From assembly GCF_024502345.1 (NCBI RefSeq), contig NZ_JALDNN010000001.1: 64,000 nt of DNA. One strand, written 5' to 3'. This stretch comes from Escherichia coli. GTDB lineage: Bacteria > Pseudomonadota > Gammaproteobacteria > Enterobacterales > Enterobacteriaceae. Position 1 is the stretch's first letter. The number at the start of each line of letters is the position of its first letter. The notes below the pieces were generated by a model. It ran no database searches. It worked only from the letters and a program-made list of their open reading frames with translations, and was not told where the DNA came from. Of this stretch, positions 3,874 through 24,047 are shown piece after piece. Made by a program: the position numbers and the translations under genes.

Positions 3874-4686
3874 ATGGCACGCATTATTGTTGTTACTTCG
3901 GGCAAAGGGGGTGTTGGTAAGACAACCTCCAGCGCGGCCATCGCCACTGGTTTGGCCCAGAAGGGAAAGAAAACTGTCGTGATAGATTTTGATATCGGCC
4001 TGCGTAATCTCGACCTGATTATGGGTTGCGAACGCCGGGTCGTTTACGATTTCGTCAACGTCATTCAGGGCGATGCAACGCTAAATCAGGCGTTAATTAA
4101 AGATAAGCGTACTGAAAATCTCTATATTCTGCCGGCATCGCAAACACGCGATAAAGATGCCCTCACCCGTGAAGGGGTCGCCAAAGTTCTTGATGATCTG
4201 AAAGCGATGGATTTTGAATTTATCGTTTGTGACTCCCCGGCAGGGATTGAAACCGGTGCGTTAATGGCACTCTATTTTGCAGACGAAGCCATTATTACCA
4301 CCAACCCGGAAGTCTCCTCAGTACGCGACTCTGACCGTATTTTAGGCATTCTGGCGTCAAAATCACGCCGCGCAGAAAATGGCGAAGAGCCTATTAAAGA
4401 GCACCTGCTGTTAACGCGCTATAACCCAGGCCGCGTAAGCAGAGGTGACATGCTGAGCATGGAAGATGTGCTGGAGATCCTGCGCATCAAACTCGTCGGC
4501 GTGATCCCAGAGGATCAATCAGTATTGCGCGCCTCTAACCAGGGTGAGCCGGTCATTCTCGACATTAACGCCGATGCGGGTAAAGCCTACGCAGATACCG
4601 TAGAACGTCTGTTGGGAGAAGAACGTCCTTTCCGCTTCATTGAAGAAGAGAAGAAAGGCTTCCTCAAACGCTTGTTCGGAGGATAA
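3874..4686 (+). CDS. minD: Septum site-determining ATPase MinD
   Basis: 270-aa ORF with Walker A GKGGVGKTT; deviant ParA/MinD family. Confidence 0.97.
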   Translation: MARIIVVTSGKGGVGKTTSSAAIATGLAQKGKKTVVIDFDIGLRNLDLIMGCERRVVYDFVNVIQGDATLNQALIKDKRTENLYILPASQTRDKDALTREGVAKVLDDLKAMDFEFIVCDSPAGIETGALMALYFADEAIITTNPEVSSVRDSDRILGILASKSRRAENGEEPIKEHLLLTRYNPGRVSRGDMLSMEDVLEILRIKLVGVIPEDQSVLRASNQGEPVILDINADAGKAYADTVERLLGEERPFRFIEEEKKGFLKRLFGG

Positions 4687-4689
4687 GTT

Positions 4690-4956
4690 ATGGCATTACT
4701 CGATTTCTTTCTCTCGCGGAAGAAAAATACAGCCAACATTGCAAAAGAACGGCTGCAGATTATTGTTGCTGAACGCCGTCGCAGCGATGCAGAACCGCAT
4801 TATCTGCCGCAGTTGCGTAAAGATATTCTTGAGGTCATTTGTAAATACGTACAAATTGATCCTGAGATGGTAACCGTACAGCTTGAGCAAAAAGATGGCG
4901 ATATTTCTATTCTTGAGCTGAACGTGACCTTACCGGAAGCAGAAGAGCTGAAATAA
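4690..4956 (+). CDS. minE: Cell division topological specificity factor MinE
   Basis: 88-aa [34 protein letters not shown]... Confidence 0.97.
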
Positions 4957-4982
4957 TCCCGCTGTAAAAGCGCATTTATCTT

Positions 4983-5014
4983 CAAGGCAGAGTTATCTCT
5001 GCCTTGAGTTTTTC
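4983..5014 (+). terminator. Intrinsic terminator downstream of minE
   Basis: Stem caaggcaga/tctgccttg with loop gttatc, followed by agtttttc. Confidence 0.7.
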
Positions 5015-5103
5015 ATCCCTCTCATCCACGTTGTGGTAAAGCGGCGAGTATTCTTGCTGATACTCCTCATTGCTATTTCCACCTCCCCCTTTACACCTTA
5101 AGG

Positions 5104-6160
5104 GGCTTTGTTGAATAAATCGAACTTTTGCTGAGTTGAAGGATCAGATCACGTATCTTCCCGACAACGCAGACCGTTCCGTGGCAAAGCAAAAGTTCAA
5201 AATCACCAACTGGCCCACCTACAATAAAGCCCTCATCAACCGTGGCTCCATAACTTTCTGGCTGGATGATGAAGCTATTCAGGCCTGGTATGAGTCAGCA
5301 ACACCTTCTTCACGAGGCAGACCTCAGCGCTATTCTGACCTTGCCATCACGACTGTGCTGGTCATTAAACGCGTATTCAGGCTGACCCTGCGCGCTGCGC
5401 AGGGCTTTATTGATTCCATTTTTTCTCTGATGAACGTTCCGCTACGCTGCCCGGATTACAGCTGTGTCAGCAGGCGGGCAAAGTCGGTTAATGTCAGTTT
5501 CAAAACGCCCACCCGGGGTGAAATCGCACACCTGGTAATTGATTCCACCGGGCTGAAGGTCTTCGGTGAAGGCGAGTGGAAAGTCAAAAAGCATGGCCAG
5601 GAACGCCGCCGTATCTGGCGTAAGCTGCATCTCGCCGTTGACAGTAAAACACATGAAATCATCTGCGCTGACCTGTCGCTGAACAACGTTACGGACTCAG
5701 AGGCCTTCCCCGGGTTAATCCGGCAAACCCACCGGAAAATCAGGTCAGCCGCCGCCGATGGCGCTTACGATACCCGGCTATGTCACGATGAACTGCGGCG
5801 TAAGAAAATCAGCGCGCTTATCCCTCCCCGAAAAGGTGCGGGTTACTGGCCCGGTGAATATGCAGACCGTAACCGTGCAGTGGCTAATCAGCGAATGACC
5901 GGGAGTAATGCGCGGTGGAAATGGACAACAGATTACAACCGTCGCTCGATAGCGGAAACGGCGATGTACCGGGTAAAACAGCTGTTCGGGGGTTCACTGA
6001 CACTGCGTGACTACGATGGTCAGGTTGCAGAGGCTATGGCCCTGGTACGAGCGCTGAACAAAATGACGAAAGCAGGTATGCCTGAAAGCGTGCGTATTGC
6101 CTGAAAACACAACCCGCTACGGGGGAGACTTACCCGAAATCTGATTTATTCAACAAAGCC
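5104..6160 (+). mobile_element. IS903-group insertion sequence (IS5 family), copy 1, 1057 bp, no target-site duplication
   Basis: Perfect 18-bp terminal inverted repeats GGCTTTGTTGAATAAATC (5104-5121 and 6143-6160); length 1057 bp; transposase ORF. Flanking 9-mers differ (ACCTTAAGG vs ATCGTGCAC). Confidence 0.93.
5181..6104 (+). CDS. IS903-type transposase (307 aa from GTG at 5181; the track ORF starts at TTG 5136)
   Basis: Translation VAKQKFKITNWPTYNKALINRGSITFWLDDEAIQAWYESATPSSRGRPQRYSDL... matches the IS903/IS102 transposase family from memory. Confidence 0.9.
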   Translation: MAKQKFKITNWPTYNKALINRGSITFWLDDEAIQAWYESATPSSRGRPQRYSDLAITTVLVIKRVFRLTLRAAQGFIDSIFSLMNVPLRCPDYSCVSRRAKSVNVSFKTPTRGEIAHLVIDSTGLKVFGEGEWKVKKHGQERRRIWRKLHLAVDSKTHEIICADLSLNNVTDSEAFPGLIRQTHRKIRSAAADGAYDTRLCHDELRRKKISALIPPRKGAGYWPGEYADRNRAVANQRMTGSNARWKWTTDYNRRSIAETAMYRVKQLFGGSLTLRDYDGQVAEAMALVRALNKMTKAGMPESVRIA

Positions 6161-6208
6161 ATCGTGCACACTACGCAGTCTCACAACTAACAAGAGGTTA
6201 TTATCCTG

Positions 6209-6613
6209 ATGGATCAGGTCGTTGTTTTTCAAAAGATGTTTGAGCAAGTGAGAAAAGAGCAAAACTTCTCCTGGTTTTATTCAGAATTAAAACATCACCG
6301 TATTGCACATTACATTTATTATCTGGCTACGGATAACATCAGAATTATTACTCACGATGACACGGTTTTGTTATTAAGAGGAACCAGGAACCTGTTAAAA
6401 GTTAGTACGACCAAGAACCCTGCTAAAATAAAAGAGGCCGCATTGCTTCATATTTGCGGAAAATCTACATTTCGGGAATACTGTTCAACACTGGCAGACG
6501 CGGGCGTTTTCCGTTGGGTTACTGATGTTAATCATAACAAACGCAGTTACTACGCCATTGATAATACGCTTTTATATATTGAAGATGTAGAAAATAATAA
6601 ACCATTAATCTAG
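6209..6613 (+). CDS. ycgX: DUF1398 family protein, YcgX-like
   Basis: 134-aa ORF immediately upstream of iraM, the K-12 position of ycgX. The protein sequence itself was not matched from memory. Confidence 0.6.
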   Translation: MDQVVVFQKMFEQVRKEQNFSWFYSELKHHRIAHYIYYLATDNIRIITHDDTVLLLRGTRNLLKVSTTKNPAKIKEAALLHICGKSTFREYCSTLADAGVFRWVTDVNHNKRSYYAIDNTLLYIEDVENNKPLI

Positions 6614-6828
6614 CTAAAGTTGGATGCTTAAGAAATGCTTCATAATTCAGTATGGCATTAGCATAATGGGAATAAAAGTACAGAGACTATCCCTATGGAT
6701 GATAAATACTGTCCTTTTATTGCTACCCATAAATAATCACCTGGCCAATACTATCAAATTGATATTTGAAATGTGATCACTTGACTTTCTATACGTTATT
6801 TCATAACGTTTAATATATTTATAAAAAC

Positions 6829-6851
6829 AACGGGCGTGCCATACGCCCGTT
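6829..6851. terminator. Hairpin aacgggcgt-gccat-acgcccgtt in the ycgX-iraM spacer; likely terminator
   Basis: Perfect 9-bp stem; the reverse strand is followed by a T-rich run. About 85% similar over roughly 50 bp to the hairpin at 7689-7711. Confidence 0.5.
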
Positions 6852-7308
6852 TCAATACTTAACGCACATGTGTTTTGGTTTAGTCATCATCCAGTTATAT
6901 GTATTTTAGCCAGGAACAGGTTAAACCTTTCCTATATAACTCAAAAATTGAAACCTTATTCTCATGTCATGCTTATATTCATTATTATCGTTATATAAAA
7001 AGGCAACCATAATGTTTAGCAAATTGGCACAAAGTAGCATAAAGGCTATGTTTTAATTACAGGATGGTCAGTCATTTGAATGTATAACATTATAGCTAAA
7101 CAAATCTAAAACGAAGTGAATAATTTATTGTTTTCACTAAATCTCATTTTGTTTAACATCCATTGAGATTCCTTGCTTTAAATTTTGTTTTATATAAGCA
7201 ATTGTTTTAATTAATTTATTTTTTGAAGGGGTAATATACTCATATGCAAAATAAAGAAATGAACATCCAAATGAACTATATTAAATACCGTGGGATAAGA
7301 CATAACAA

Positions 7309-7632
7309 ATGAAGTGGGTAGTAATTGACACGGTAATTCAACCTACATGCGGCATATCTTTTTCAGCCATATGGGGTGATATGAAAATGATTATCTGGTA
7401 TCAATCTACTATATTTCTTCCTCCTGGAAGTATATTTACACTGGTTAAGCCTGGTATTATCCTTAAGGATAAAGAATATCCTATAACTATTTATAACATT
7501 GCACCATTCAACAAGAATTTATGGAGTTTACTCAAAAGCAGTCAAGAGTGTCCTCCAGGAGAAAGCGAAATAACAAATAAATGTTTGCATAAGAGTTGTA
7601 TTATAAAAATATGCCCATATGGGCTCAAGTAA
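7309..7632 (+). CDS. iraM: Anti-adaptor protein IraM (stabilises RpoS against RssB)
   Basis: 107-aa [44 protein letters not shown]...; long AT-rich upstream region; adjacent to icd. Confidence 0.85.
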
Positions 7633-7688
7633 TGGGTTTTATATAAATATGCTCGATATGCTATTAATAATATCCACATAAATAAAAC

Positions 7689-7711
7689 AACGGGCGTGTT
7701 ATACGCCCGTT
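7689..7711. terminator. Bidirectional intrinsic terminator between convergent iraM and icd
   Basis: Stem aacgggcgt/acgcccgtt with loop gttat; on the reverse strand it is followed by GTTTTATTTAT, directly downstream of the icd stop. Confidence 0.7.
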
Positions 7712-7734
7712 TAAATATTTAACACATGTAGTGA

Positions 7735-8985
7735 TTACATATTTTTGATGATCGCATCACCAAACTCTGAACATTTCAGCAGTTTAGCGCCTTCCATCAG
7801 ACGTTCGAAGTCATAGGTTACGGTCTTCGCATTGATTGCGCCTTCCATACCTTTAACAATCAGGTCTGCGGCTTCGGTCCAACCCATGTGGCGTAACATC
7901 ATCTCAGCAGAGAGAATAATAGAACCTGGGTTAACTTTGTCCTGACCGGCATATTTCGGCGCAGTACCGTGGGTGGCTTCAAACAGGGCGCATTCGTCAC
8001 CGATGTTTGCACCAGGGGCGATACCGATACCGCCAACCTGCGCTGCCAGGGCGTCAGAAATGTAGTCACCGTTCAGGTTCATACAGGCGATAACATCATA
8101 TTCAGCCGGACGCAGCAGGATCTGTTGCAGGAATGCATCAGCAATCACGTCTTTAATGACGATCTCTTTGCCGGTATTCGGGTTTTTAACTTTCAGCCAC
8201 GGGCCGCCGTCGATCAGTTCACCGCCAAATTCTTCACGCGCCAGCTGGTAGCCCCAGTCTTTAAACGCGCCTTCGGTGAACTTCATGATGTTGCCTTTGT
8301 GCACCAGGGTCACAGAGTCACGATCGTTAGCAATTGCGTATTCGATCGCTGCACGAACCAGACGTTTGGTGCCTTCTTCAGAACACGGCTTAATACCGAT
8401 ACCGCAATGTTCCGGGAAGCGAATTTTCTTCACGCCCATCTCTTCACGCAGGAATTTAATCACTTTCTCGGCGTCGGCAGAGTCAGCTTTCCATTCGATA
8501 CCCGCATAAATGTCTTCCGAGTTTTCACGGAAGATAACCATATCGGTCAGTTCAGGGTGTTTAACCGGGCTTGGAGTGCCCTGATAGTAACGTACCGGAC
8601 GCAGGCAGATGTAGAGATCCAGTTCCTGGCGCAGGGCAACGTTCAGAGAGCGAATACCGCCACCAACCGGAGTGGTCAGCGGGCCTTTAATGGCAACGCG
8701 ATATTCACGAATCAGATCAAGGGTTTCAGCAGGCAGCCAGACATCCTGACCATAAACCTGTGTGGATTTTTCACCGGTGTAAATTTCCATCCAGGAGATT
8801 TTACGCTCGCCTTTATAGGCTTTCTCGACTGCAGCGTCGACCACTTTCAGCATGGCTGGGGTTACATCTACACCGATTCCATCACCTTCAATGTAAGGGA
8901 TAATCGGATTTTCAGGAACGTTGAGTTTGCCGTTTTGCAGGGTGATCTTCTTGCCTTGTGCCGGAACAACTACTTTACTTTCCAT
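7735..8985 (-). CDS. icd: Isocitrate dehydrogenase (NADP)
   Basis: 416-aa [41 protein letters not shown]...; no prophage is attached to its 3' end. Confidence 0.97.
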
Positions 8986-9156
8986 TCACCTCTCCTTCGA
9001 GCGCTACTGGTTTGCTCGTCTGCCACCACGTTGCATATGCGTTTGCGTCCTGCGATACGGATGCTTTAGAGCAATTTTTTGTTAATGATTTGTAATTGGC
9101 TTGTCAATACTACCCTATTGTTTGCCGTCATGAAAGATGCGCGTTATTAGGCTATA

Positions 9157-9810
9157 ATGCGGCAATTCATAATCTCTGAAAATACCATGCAAAAAACTTC
9201 TTTTAGAAATCACCAGGTTAAGCGATTCAGCTCGCAACGTTCTACCAGGCGTAAACCTGAAAACCAGCCCACGCGTGTGATCCTGTTCAATAAACCCTAC
9301 GATGTTCTTCCGCAGTTCACCGATGAAGCCGGACGCAAAACATTAAAAGAATTCATCCCGGTTCAGGGCGTTTATGCAGCAGGTCGTCTTGACCGCGATA
9401 GCGAAGGGTTACTGGTGCTGACCAATAACGGCGCGTTGCAGGCGCGTTTAACCCAGCCGGGCAAACGCACCGGGAAAATCTATTATGTGCAGGTGGAAGG
9501 TATTCCCACACAAGACGCACTTGAAGCCTTGCGCAATGGCGTAACCTTAAATGATGGCCCTACCCTGCCCGCCGGCGCGGAGCTGGTTGACGAACCTGCG
9601 TGGTTATGGCCGCGGAATCCACCAATTCGTGAACGCAAAAGTATTCCCACCAGCTGGCTGAAGATCACCTTATATGAAGGACGTAATCGCCAGGTGCGCC
9701 GCATGACCGCCCATGTTGGCTTCCCCACGCTGCGACTGATTCGTTATGCGATGGGTGATTACACTTTGGATAATCTCGCTAACGGCGAATGGCGAGAAGC
9801 GACAGAATAA
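9157..9810 (+). CDS. rluE: 23S rRNA pseudouridine(2457) synthase RluE
   Basis: 217-aa ORF, pseudouridine synthase family; divergent from icd as in K-12. Confidence 0.9.
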
Positions 9811-9819
9811 GGATGCAAA

Positions 9820-11441
<1,622 letters not shown>

Positions 11442-11476
11442 TTATTATCTTTACTTAAAACAAGGAAGCAGTGAAC

Positions 11477-12118
11477 GTGGCAAAGAATTACTATGACATC
11501 ACCCTCGCCCTGGCCGGTATTTGTCAGTCGGCACGCCTGGTGCAACAACTCGCTCACCAGGGGCATTGTGATGCCGATGCGCTACACGTCTCACTCAACA
11601 GTATTATTGATATGAACCCCAGCTCGACGCTGGCGGTTTTTGGCGGTAGCGAAGCCAACCTGCGCGTCGGGCTGGAAACCCTGCTCGGCGTGCTCAATGC
11701 CAGCAGTCGCCAGGGCTTAAACGCCGAATTAACCCGCTACACACTCAGTCTGATGGTGCTTGAGCGCAAACTCTCCTCAGCGAAAGGTGCGCTCGACACT
11801 CTGGGCAACCGGATCAACGGCCTGCAACGCCAACTCGAACACTTCGATTTACAGTCCGAAACGCTGATGAGCGCGATGGCTGCTATCTATGTTGATGTGA
11901 TTAGCCCGCTTGGCCCGCGCATTCAGGTCACCGGCTCCCCTGCTGTACTGCAAAGCCCACAAGTGCAGGCGAAAGTTCGCGCAACCCTGCTGGCAGGCAT
12001 TCGCGCCGCCGTGCTCTGGCACCAGGTCGGCGGCGGACGTCTGCAACTGATGTTTTCTCGTAATCGCCTGACCACTCAGGCAAAACAAATTCTTGCTCAT
12101 TTAACCCCGGAGTTGTGA
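11477..12118 (+). CDS. hflD: High-frequency lysogenisation protein HflD
   Basis: GTG start gives (M)[31 protein letters not shown]..., 213 aa. Confidence 0.88.
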
Positions 12119-13492
<1,374 letters not shown>

Positions 13493-13504
13493 ACTCGTAT
13501 CAGT

Positions 13505-13560
13505 GCCGGATAGCGATGCTGTCCGGCCTGCTTATTAAGATTATCCGCTTTTTATTTTTT
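13505..13560 (+). terminator. REP-like palindrome and T-tract downstream of purB
   Basis: gccggatagcgatgctgtccggc followed by a T-rich tract (gctttttatttttt). Confidence 0.5.
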
Positions 13561-13582
13561 CACTTTACCTCCCCTCCCCGCT

Positions 13583-13599
13583 GGTTTATTTAATGTTTA
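13583..13599 (+). promoter_or_regulatory. PhoP box (autoregulated phoP promoter)
   Basis: GGTTTA-tttaa-TGTTTA direct repeat, matching the (T/G)GTTTA-N5-(T/G)GTTTA consensus, about 60 bp upstream of the phoP ATG. Confidence 0.8.
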
Positions 13600-13659
13600 C
13601 CCCCATAACCACATAATCGCGTTACACTATTTTAATAATTAAGACAGGGAGAAATAAAA

Positions 13660-14331
13660 ATGCGCGTACTGGTTGTTGAAGACAATGCGTTGTTACGTCA
13701 CCACCTTAAAGTTCAGATTCAGGATGCTGGTCATCAGGTCGATGACGCAGAAGATGCCAAAGAAGCCGATTATTATCTCAATGAACATTTACCGGATATT
13801 GCGATTGTCGATCTCGGATTGCCAGACGAGGACGGTCTGTCACTGATTCGCCGCTGGCGTAGCAATGATGTTTCACTGCCGATTCTGGTATTAACCGCCC
13901 GTGAAAGCTGGCAGGACAAAGTCGAAGTATTAAGTGCCGGTGCTGATGATTACGTGACTAAACCGTTTCATATTGAAGAGGTGATGGCGCGAATGCAGGC
14001 ATTAATGCGGCGTAATAGCGGTCTGGCTTCACAGGTCATTTCGCTCCCCCCGTTTCAGGTTGATCTCTCTCGCCGTGAATTATCTATTAATGACGAAGTG
14101 ATCAAACTGACCGCGTTCGAATACACCATTATGGAAACGTTGATACGCAATAATGGCAAAGTGGTCAGCAAAGATTCGTTAATGCTACAACTCTATCCGG
14201 ATGCGGAGCTGCGGGAAAGCCATACCATTGATGTACTGATGGGACGTCTGCGCAAAAAAATTCAGGCACAATATCCGCAAGAAGTGATTACTACCGTTCG
14301 CGGCCAGGGCTATCTGTTCGAATTGCGCTGA
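13660..14331 (+). CDS. phoP: Two-component response regulator PhoP
   Basis: 223-aa [42 protein letters not shown]... Confidence 0.97.
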
Positions 14332-15791
14332 TGAAAAAATTACTGCGTCTTTTTTTCCCGCTCTCGCTGCGGGTACGTTTTCTGTTGGCAACGGCAGCGG
14401 TAGTACTGGTGCTTTCGCTTGCCTACGGAATGGTCGCGCTGATCGGTTATAGCGTCAGTTTCGATAAAACTACGTTTCGGCTGTTACGTGGCGAGAGCAA
14501 TCTGTTCTATACCCTTGCGAAGTGGGAAAACAATAAGTTGCATGTCGAGTTACCCGAAAATATCGACAAGCAAAGCCCCACCATGACGCTAATTTATGAT
14601 GAGAACGGGCAGCTTTTATGGGCGCAACGTGACGTGCCCTGGCTGATGAAGATGATCCAGCCTGACTGGCTGAAATCGAATGGTTTTCATGAAATTGAAG
14701 CGGATGTTAACGATACCAGCCTCTTGCTGAGTGGAGATCATTCGATACAGCAACAGTTGCAGGAAGTGCGGGAAGATGATGACGACGCGGAGATGACCCA
14801 CTCGGTGGCGGTAAACGTCTACCCGGCAACATCGCGGATGCCAAAGTTAACCATTGTGGTGGTGGATACCATTCCGGTGGAGCTAAAAAGTTCCTATATG
14901 GTCTGGAGCTGGTTTATCTATGTGCTCTCAGCCAATCTGCTGTTAGTGATCCCGCTGCTGTGGGTCGCCGCCTGGTGGAGTTTACGCCCCATCGAAGCTC
15001 TGGCAAAAGAAGTCCGCGAACTGGAAGAACATAACCGCGAATTGCTCAATCCAGCCACAACGCGAGAACTGACCAGTCTGGTACGAAACCTGAACCGATT
15101 GTTAAAAAGTGAACGCGAACGTTACGACAAATATCGTACAACGCTCACCGACCTGACCCATAGTCTGAAAACGCCACTGGCGGTGCTGCAAAGTACGCTG
15201 CGTTCTCTGCGTAGTGAAAAGATGAGCGTCAGTGATGCTGAACCGGTAATGCTGGAGCAAATCAGCCGCATTTCACAGCAAATTGGCTACTACCTGCATC
15301 GTGCCAGTATGCGCGGCGGGACATTGCTCAGCCGCGAGCTGCATCCGGTCGCCCCACTGCTGGACAATCTCACCTCGGCGCTGAACAAAGTGTATCAACG
15401 CAAAGGGGTCAATATCTCTCTCGATATTTCGCCAGAGATCAGCTTTGTCGGTGAGCAGAACGATTTTGTCGAGGTGATGGGCAATGTGCTGGATAATGCC
15501 TGTAAATATTGCCTCGAGTTTGTCGAAATTTCTGCAAGGCAAACCGACGAGCATCTCTATATTGTGGTCGAGGATGATGGACCCGGTATTCCATTAAGCA
15601 AGCGAGAGGTCATTTTCGACCGTGGTCAACGGGTTGATACTTTACGCCCTGGGCAAGGTGTAGGGCTGGCGGTAGCCCGCGAAATCACCGAGCAATATGA
15701 GGGTAAAATCGTCGCCGGAGAGAGCATGCTTGGCGGTGCGCGGATGGAGGTGATTTTTGGTCGCCAGCATTCTACGCCGAAAGATGAATAA
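14331..15791 (+). CDS. phoQ: Sensor histidine kinase PhoQ
   Basis: 486-aa ORF overlapping the phoP stop (ATGA); transmembrane segments and histidine kinase motifs. Confidence 0.97.
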
Positions 15792-15866
15792 ATATGTCCA
15801 TACTTCACGCATTACGTTAAGCATCCGTTATAATCGGTTGCAGATACCAGCCTGTGGATGCTTAAC

Positions 15867-22990: not shown

Positions 22991-24047
22991 GGCTTTGTTG
23001 AATAAATCGAACTTTTGCTGAGTTGAAGGATCAGATCACGTATCTTCCCGACAACGCAGACCGTTCCGTGGCAAAGCAAAAGTTCAAAATCACCAACTGG
23101 CCCACCTACAATAAAGCCCTCATCAACCGTGGCTCCATAACTTTCTGGCTGGATGATGAAGCTATTCAGGCCTGGTATGAGTCAGCAACACCTTCTTCAC
23201 GAGGCAGACCTCAGCGCTATTCTGACCTTGCCATCACGACTGTGCTGGTCATTAAACGCGTATTCAGGCTGACCCTGCGCGCTGCGCAGGGCTTTATTGA
23301 TTCCATTTTTTCTCTGATGAACGTTCCGCTACGCTGCCCGGATTACAGCTGTGTCAGCAGGCGGGCAAAGTCGGTTAATGTCAGTTTCAAAACGCCCACC
23401 CGGGGTGAAATCGCACACCTGGTAATTGATTCCACCGGGCTGAAGGTCTTCGGTGAAGGCGAGTGGAAAGTCAAAAAGCATGGCCAGGAACGCCGCCGTA
23501 TCTGGCGTAAGCTGCATCTCGCCGTTGACAGTAAAACACATGAAATCATCTGCGCTGACCTGTCGCTGAACAACGTTACGGACTCAGAGGCCTTCCCCGG
23601 GTTAATCCGGCAAACCCACCGGAAAATCAGGTCAGCCGCCGCCGATGGCGCTTACGATACCCGGCTATGTCACGATGAACTGCGGCGTAAGAAAATCAGC
23701 GCGCTTATCCCTCCCCGAAAAGGTGCGGGTTACTGGCCCGGTGAATATGCAGACCGTAACCGTGCAGTGGCTAATCAGCGAATGACCGGGAGTAATGCGC
23801 GGTGGAAATGGACAACAGATTACAACCGTCGCTCGATAGCGGAAACGGCGATGTACCGGGTAAAACAGCTGTTCGGGGGTTCACTGACACTGCGTGACTA
23901 CGATGGTCAGGTTGCAGAGGCTATGGCCCTGGTACGAGCGCTGAACAAAATGACGAAAGCAGGTATGCCTGAAAGCGTGCGTATTGCCTGAAAACACAAC
24001 CCGCTACGGGGGAGACTTACCCGAAATCTGATTTATTCAACAAAGCC
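22991..24047 (+). mobile_element. IS903-group insertion sequence, copy 2, 1057 bp, flanked by a 9-bp target-site duplication
   Basis: Same terminal repeats and encoded proteins as copy 1; direct orientation; perfect 9-bp duplication. Confidence 0.95.
23068..23991 (+). CDS. IS903-type transposase (307 aa from GTG; the track ORF starts at 23023)
   Basis: Identical to the transposase of copy 1. Confidence 0.9.
   Translation: MAKQKFKITNWPTYNKALINRGSITFWLDDEAIQAWYESATPSSRGRPQRYSDLAITTVLVIKRVFRLTLRAAQGFIDSIFSLMNVPLRCPDYSCVSRRAKSVNVSFKTPTRGEIAHLVIDSTGLKVFGEGEWKVKKHGQERRRIWRKLHLAVDSKTHEIICADLSLNNVTDSEAFPGLIRQTHRKIRSAAADGAYDTRLCHDELRRKKISALIPPRKGAGYWPGEYADRNRAVANQRMTGSNARWKWTTDYNRRSIAETAMYRVKQLFGGSLTLRDYDGQVAEAMALVRALNKMTKAGMPESVRIA

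Follow-up and report, generated by a model that had tools for sequence, protein, structure and literature searches.

An Apparently Unoccupied icd 3'-End Attachment Site for e14 and Phage-21-Type Phages in Escherichia coli

The 3' end of icd in the window, by which we mean the whole 64-kb stretch of Escherichia coli DNA analysed here, is very probably an ordinary, unoccupied attachment site of the kind at which e14 and lambdoid phages of the phage-21 type integrate. A single, complete icd borders directly on the iraM-side flank, the 218-bp segment that such phages carry is present once, and neither an integrase nor any e14 interior sequence was found in the window. An empty icd attachment site beside an intact icd is already known and well described, and is the commonest arrangement in E. 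coli; the strain shows the most frequent state of a classic prophage attachment site, which matters little alone. The Icd protein encoded here is a widespread E. coli protein and not the e14-modified variant of K-12.

Structure and frequency of the empty icd site

The icd gene, encoding NADP-dependent isocitrate dehydrogenase, occupies positions 7735..8985 on the minus strand as a complete 416-aa ORF with its stop codon at 7735-7737, and iraM, encoding the 107-aa anti-adaptor protein IraM, lies convergent with it at 7309..7632 on the plus strand with its stop at 7630-7632. The identities of both are secure. Icd gave full-length matches to NCBIfam NF005425 (859 bits, cutoff 490) and TIGR00183 (801 bits, cutoff 567), both with equivalog cutoffs; IraM gave 168.4 bits with NCBIfam NF007393 (cutoff 121) over residues 1-107, and iraM is annotated in the segment of strain LH50-c that is identical to the window. 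The initial annotation had placed about 100 bp and one terminator hairpin between the two stops and had described icd as adjoining iraM without e14. Both statements hold: the spacer (7633..7734) is exactly 102 bp long, the hairpin lies at 7689-7711, and the icd 3' end continues directly into the iraM-side flank. The length of this spacer equals that of the icdC-iraM spacer of K-12, from which it differs at 5 of 102 positions.

Phage sequences match the window in a 218-bp att-homology segment (7682..7899, minus strand), stopping exactly at 7682 and 7899; it consists of icd nt 1087-1251 and 53 nt of 3' UTR containing the terminator. Because this segment is single-copy in the window, the site reads as an unoccupied attB. 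When the whole K-12 segment was used as a blastn query, matches were confined to icd and the iraM-side flank, and the e14 interior had none in the 64-kb window. Likewise, IntE and phage-21 Int gave no tblastn match in the window, and the phage-21 arm-site motif YYTTCCCCAAAA was absent from it with one mismatch allowed. The icd 3' end occurred as one full copy in the 64 kb, the second match being to a 48-nt terminator copy only. The rest of the window resembled chromosomal stretches of other E. coli that carry annotated core genes (among them phoPQ, roxA, pepT, potABCD, lolCDE, mfd, ndh, ptsG, fhuE, and rne) and no prophage genes; two copies of IS903B were the only mobile DNA found in the window. 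The proposal that the attachment site is unoccupied was thus borne out in the structural sense by the single att-homology copy, the native distal spacer, and the absent integrase, and the arrangement that had been named as speaking against it, e14 integrase or prophage genes beside an icd fragment elsewhere, was not found within the window.

The layout is explained by the way in which these elements integrate. Elements of the e14 and phage-21 type insert at a point in icd some 165 bp short of its stop codon and supply their own last 165 bp and terminator, so that icd stays intact; the native icd 3' copy is pushed beyond the distal prophage end and comes to lie beside iraM. In the window nothing is integrated, leaving a single chromosomal icd 3' end, presumably terminated at the hairpin 7689-7711, with iraM 102 bp further on. 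In this scheme the function of the terminator, the position of the crossover, and the competence of the site for integration are inferred.

Of 5425 complete E. coli genomes, 3013 contained the contiguous icd-iraM junction (query, window 7250-8150) as a single piece, and the empty icd site is the majority state of the species. Five genomes were 100% identical to the window junction over 901 bp, and the junction recurred at 99.9-100% in at least 16 complete genomes, whose hosts included chicken, calf, pig, mink, and human. Short-read assemblies can in principle collapse repeat-flanked insertions, and a prophage with the 218-bp repeat at either end might have been lost from the contig in this way; given the presence of the junction in those 3013 complete genomes, five of them identical, and given that the segment is not chimeric between a known phage copy and a known host copy, we regard such an assembly artefact as extremely improbable. 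Where icd sites are filled, the usual occupant is a phage-21-type prophage: the phage-21-type P' arm together with integrase was found in 1679 genomes, and the phage 21-type NC-SV integrates at the same icd site (PMC12803456). In contrast, e14 is mainly a K-12 feature. DNA of the e14 left end was found in 349 of the 5425 genomes (about 6%), with 281 of the matches at least 99% identical to K-12, and the five matches listed were K-12-type laboratory strains. K-12 is an atypical reference at the icd locus.

Alleles of the icd 3' end and the Icd C terminus

The 218-bp segment of the window is a rare allele, identical (0/218) in 17 genomes, in all of which it is single-copy, and matched at 99% or more by 36 records. 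Mismatches numbered 3 of 218 with AF017626, a prophage junction from ECOR38 (98.6% identity), 4 with the attL of FDAARGOS_1373, 10 with BL21, 15 with K-12 icdC, and 17 with Z1323HEC0462; the e14 copy of K-12, with the 3' UTR included, differed at 28 of 216 positions. A free phage as donor of the segment was considered and rejected, the best complete phage genome, ev017, being only 96.7% identical, and no identical phage copy was found; AF017626, the closer sequence, is a prophage junction.

This pattern of distances bears on whether the site had once been filled. The icd 3' end (7682-7899) could be the scar of a former lysogeny, derived from a phage-21-type prophage that subsequently disappeared when its icd copy recombined with the displaced native copy through their homology, or else imported from a lysogen. 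The segment is indeed 10-17 mismatches of 218 away from typical empty-site alleles and only 3-4 away from the prophage-attached copies AF017626 and FDAARGOS_1373; lysogens A35, A3024, and OkiPb01694 hold copies with 2 mismatches, and the segment shares the haplotype C1098/T1104/C1110 with the attached copies of e14 and FDAARGOS_1373. However, many genomes, such as 14EC033, XJ34, and DSM 103246, have alleles with 2-3 mismatches at an empty site, and EC27 has the same haplotype (nt 1087-1157) in its displaced, host-side copy. In the same comparisons, made with eight genomes, iraM and the sequence upstream differed by 3-8% and the adjacent part of icd by 2-4.5%; because these flanks are as diverged as the 218-bp segment itself, there is no patch with the boundaries of the phage homology. 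A phage-derived patch was rejected as an explanation on this ground, the density of mismatches being equally high inside and outside the 218 bp, and is kept as a low-confidence rival. As the distal spacer is also native and arm sites are absent, we consider a former lysogeny unlikely, and an ordinary empty site remains our preferred reading. From the sharing of alleles we conclude that hosts and phage-21-type prophages draw on one allele pool at the 218-bp segment; the copy in the window may stem from either source. Since alleles are common to both, use of the last approximately 200 bp of icd for MLST or phylogeny needs care.

The point of exchange for e14 was placed in icd nt 1087-1097, because attL and attR of K-12 are the same there, both junctions reading ATGCTGCGCCA, and first differ at nt 1098. 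The crossover would then fall within 7889..7899 of the window (minus strand), where the sequence is ATGTTACGCCA. This 11-nt core differs at 2 of 11 positions from that of e14 and phage 21, (A/C)TGCTGCGCCA. The TTA core variant of the window is also found in the junctions of lysogens, namely attL of strain 319 and attR of EC27, and is probably compatible with integration.

The Icd of the window is exactly WP_000444487.1, its translation being identical to the icd product of SCU-485, ST131, FDAARGOS_1373, and LH50-c. The same accession is annotated in LH50-c, PSS-11, BL21(RP), Yu5, SCU-485, ECO20, an ST131 isolate, GPEC1352, FDAARGOS_1373, and Z1323CEC0015; as these include both empty-site strains and lysogens, the protein occurs with and without a prophage. 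The initial annotation had suspected, with some uncertainty, that the Icd C terminus differs from that reconstituted by e14 in K-12, and two residues do differ. Codon 398 (7792..7794, minus strand) is GAA (Glu) here and GAT (Asp) in K-12 Icd, and codon 414 (7744..7746, minus strand) is AAA (Lys) here and GAA (Glu) in both K-12 Icd and icdC. Nor is the 3' end identical at the nucleotide level to the e14-derived end of K-12 icd, the identity that had been named as speaking against an unoccupied site; there are 13 differences over the last 165 bp. Compared with icdC, the native allele of K-12, 12 of the 165 positions differ, and the window thus has neither K-12 allele. The icdC fragment encodes E398, E410, and E414 and the window has D410 and K414, so there are two differences (410 and 414) from the icdC-encoded end. 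D398 and E414 of K-12 Icd are K-12-specific, with D398 being specific to e14.

It has been reported that the icd 3' end is replaced when e14 is present and is regained, with Asp-to-Glu changes, once e14 excises (PMC6379469; bioRxiv 10.64898/2026.06.14.732165), and the residues encoded by icdC agree with these published changes. Excision follows SOS induction, and what is left behind is a chimera of icd and icdC (bioRxiv 10.64898/2026.06.14.732165). The strain might therefore be a recently cured derivative of an e14 lysogen, having lost e14 by SOS-induced excision as in the K-12 evolution experiments. A K-12-like lysogen, however, would leave the icdC allele with E410 and E414, and the window is 12/165 away from it with D410 and K414. 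The distribution of e14 DNA (349 genomes, with 281 of the matches at least 99% identical to the K-12 sequence) and the presence of the junction at 99.9-100% in at least 16 complete genomes from varied hosts also argue against recent curing, which we consider highly improbable.

An outgroup scan of genome contigs with Icd as the query gave E. albertii as the sole Escherichia outgroup among the matches listed. The Icd of its type strain, NBRC 107761, differs from that of the window only at residue 414 (E). Behind icd, that strain has phage-21-type arm sequence and a shortened integrase ORF of 208 aa (4001-5966 of the compared sequence), and the contig ends before the far junction. Because this locus holds a degraded 21-type integrase, the icd attachment site is also used, and subject to decay, outside E. 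coli.

The putative terminator hairpin, the iraM-ymgK islet, and the local mosaic

A consensus scan of the icd strand identified a terminator-like hairpin at 7689..7711 (minus strand) with a 9-bp stem containing 6 G-C pairs, a 5-nt loop, and a T-run at 7679-7688, so that the hairpin is followed by GTTTTATTTA on that strand. The 76-nt hairpin region folded with -22.9 kcal/mol (z = -3.9 against shuffles). In the e14 copy of the hairpin the perfect 9-bp stem was kept by two compensatory pair changes, AACGGGAGC/GCTCCCGTT in the alignment, and this conservation of pairing supports a functional terminator. We presume that the hairpin is the intrinsic terminator of icd, and it possibly acts on iraM transcripts too. 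An Rfam scan of 6100-9300 with E values up to 0.1 gave no family. In the centre of the hairpin (loop 7698-7702) both Z1323HEC0462 and phage D2 have the reverse complement of the window sequence, GTGTTATAC versus GTATAACAC; it looks as if host and phage share a flipped hairpin centre here.

The terminator region is present a second time as an imperfect direct repeat. Copy 1 (46 nt, 7684..7729, minus strand) comprises the icd 3' UTR and terminator, and copy 2 (48 nt with a 2-nt insertion, 6824..6871, minus strand) lies between ymgL and ymgK. They are 860 bp apart, with 43 of 46 aligned bases identical (about 90% counting the gap) and 88% identity over an ungapped 43-nt core. Copy 1 forms the icd-side boundary and copy 2 the far boundary of an islet of iraM and ymgK (approximately 6872-7683) that has 27-34% G+C versus 50% in icd, and no more than 2 nt separate the inner edge of copy 1 from the point where the phage/host att homology stops. 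With a synthetic islet-less query, in which the att segment was fused to the sequence flanking copy 2, 1128 genomes matched at 80% coverage or more, a number that is an upper bound; 28 of the best 30 rows were single-piece matches. In LF82, Z1323CEC0015, and GPEC1352 one terminator was joined precisely to the ymgL side, and NC101 was also among the genomes with the islet-less junction. LF82, NC101, and Z1323CEC0015 belong to phylogroup B2.

Proteins of the islet and its neighbourhood have phage relatives. IraM matches phrog_4407 and has homologues in Stx2 lambdoid phages that are 64.5% identical, and YcgX is a DUF1398/phrog_413 protein, the product of a phage-type gene. When the iraM homologue of the Stx2 phages was checked for the terminator repeat, the repeat was not shared, and the coding region alone was similar (71% nucleotide identity). 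Matches to iraM in viral contigs were rejected as evidence of phage carriage; in most of them iraM sits some 1.1 kb short of the sequence end, and they look like prophage predictions overrunning into host flank. We tentatively entertain the idea that iraM came on an older element which targeted the icd 3' end or its terminator, today's attB being the edge of that decayed element, although we think it somewhat less probable than its negation. The alternative is that the segment is ancestral and was deleted between the repeats in genomes without the islet.

The presence or absence of iraM varies among strains (PMC4045071), and Hryckowian et al. (2014) placed the iraM of K-12 "on the e14 prophage" (PMC4045071). 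In the MG1655 annotation, iraM lies outside e14, beyond icdC. The window and more than 3000 genomes have iraM but no e14, and iraM is not part of e14.

Further changes surround the islet. A copy of IS903B (IS5 family) at 5104-6160, with its transposase ORF at 5136..6104, lacks a 9-bp target duplication, its flanks being ACCTTAAGG and ATCGTGCAC. It stands in for about 11 kb found between minE and ycgX of LH50-c, containing ymgJ/I/G/D, ycgH, ymgF, pdeG, ymgC, ariR, ymgA, ycgZ, bluF, and bluR, and because it replaces this DNA, the strain would be without the BluF/BluR-YcgZ-YmgAB module. The junction made by this copy was found in no complete E. coli genome. The second copy (22991-24047), 100% identical to the first, has a 9-bp target duplication, CCTCTGACG, and is a simple insertion that sits right after ymfA, where it meets the 5' end of ycfZ. 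Over 1281 bp (7204-8484, covering iraM and the 3' part of icd) LH50-c and the window are identical, and they are about 1.3% divergent on the side of 9394-15799, which contains rluE, nudJ, mnmA, hflD, and purB (126 mismatches in 9.6 kb). For positions 15000-39000 the closest complete genome was 98.4% identical. The region of the icd 3' end and iraM is a polymorphic, local recombination mosaic around the att site.

Comparison with K-12, phage 21-type prophages, and other empty sites

The icd::e14 locus of K-12 was reportedly described by Hill, Gray and Brody in 1989. In MG1655 the order is icd (b1136), e14 (1196209-1211412, 15.2 kb), the 165-bp icdC fragment (b4519), the 102-bp spacer, and iraM (b1160), in agreement with the statement in the initial annotation that K-12 has e14 and a displaced icd fragment at the icd 3' end. 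The window and K-12 share the gene order rluE, icd, and then iraM, ymgK, ymgL, and ycgX, as well as the 102-bp spacer and the same hairpin, and the 165-bp unit marks the same att position in both. They differ in that 15.2 kb of e14 lie between icd nt 1086 and icdC in K-12, whereas nothing lies there in the window, and the sequence following the K-12 icd stop on the e14 side is unlike that of the window except for the hairpin. The genes ymfD/E, lit, intE, xisE, pinE, and mcrA belong to e14, and the window is without a match to the e14 interior.

The phage 21-type prophages, represented by phage 21 (OL657228), ev017, NC-SV, and the ECOR38 junction AF017626, have a copy of their own that corresponds exactly to 7682-7899. 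Arm sites (YYTTCCCCAAAA), int, and xis come after this att stretch in phages and lysogens; the window continues instead with the native spacer and iraM. The closest counterparts of the window are the empty-site strains BL21 and LH50-c, which have the same architecture and the same Icd protein, WP_000444487.1. In the att-homology segment BL21 has 10/218 differences from the window. LH50-c matches the window at 100% over 7204-8484, is about 1.3% divergent beyond that tract, and is without the IS903B-associated deletion upstream of ycgX that the window has.
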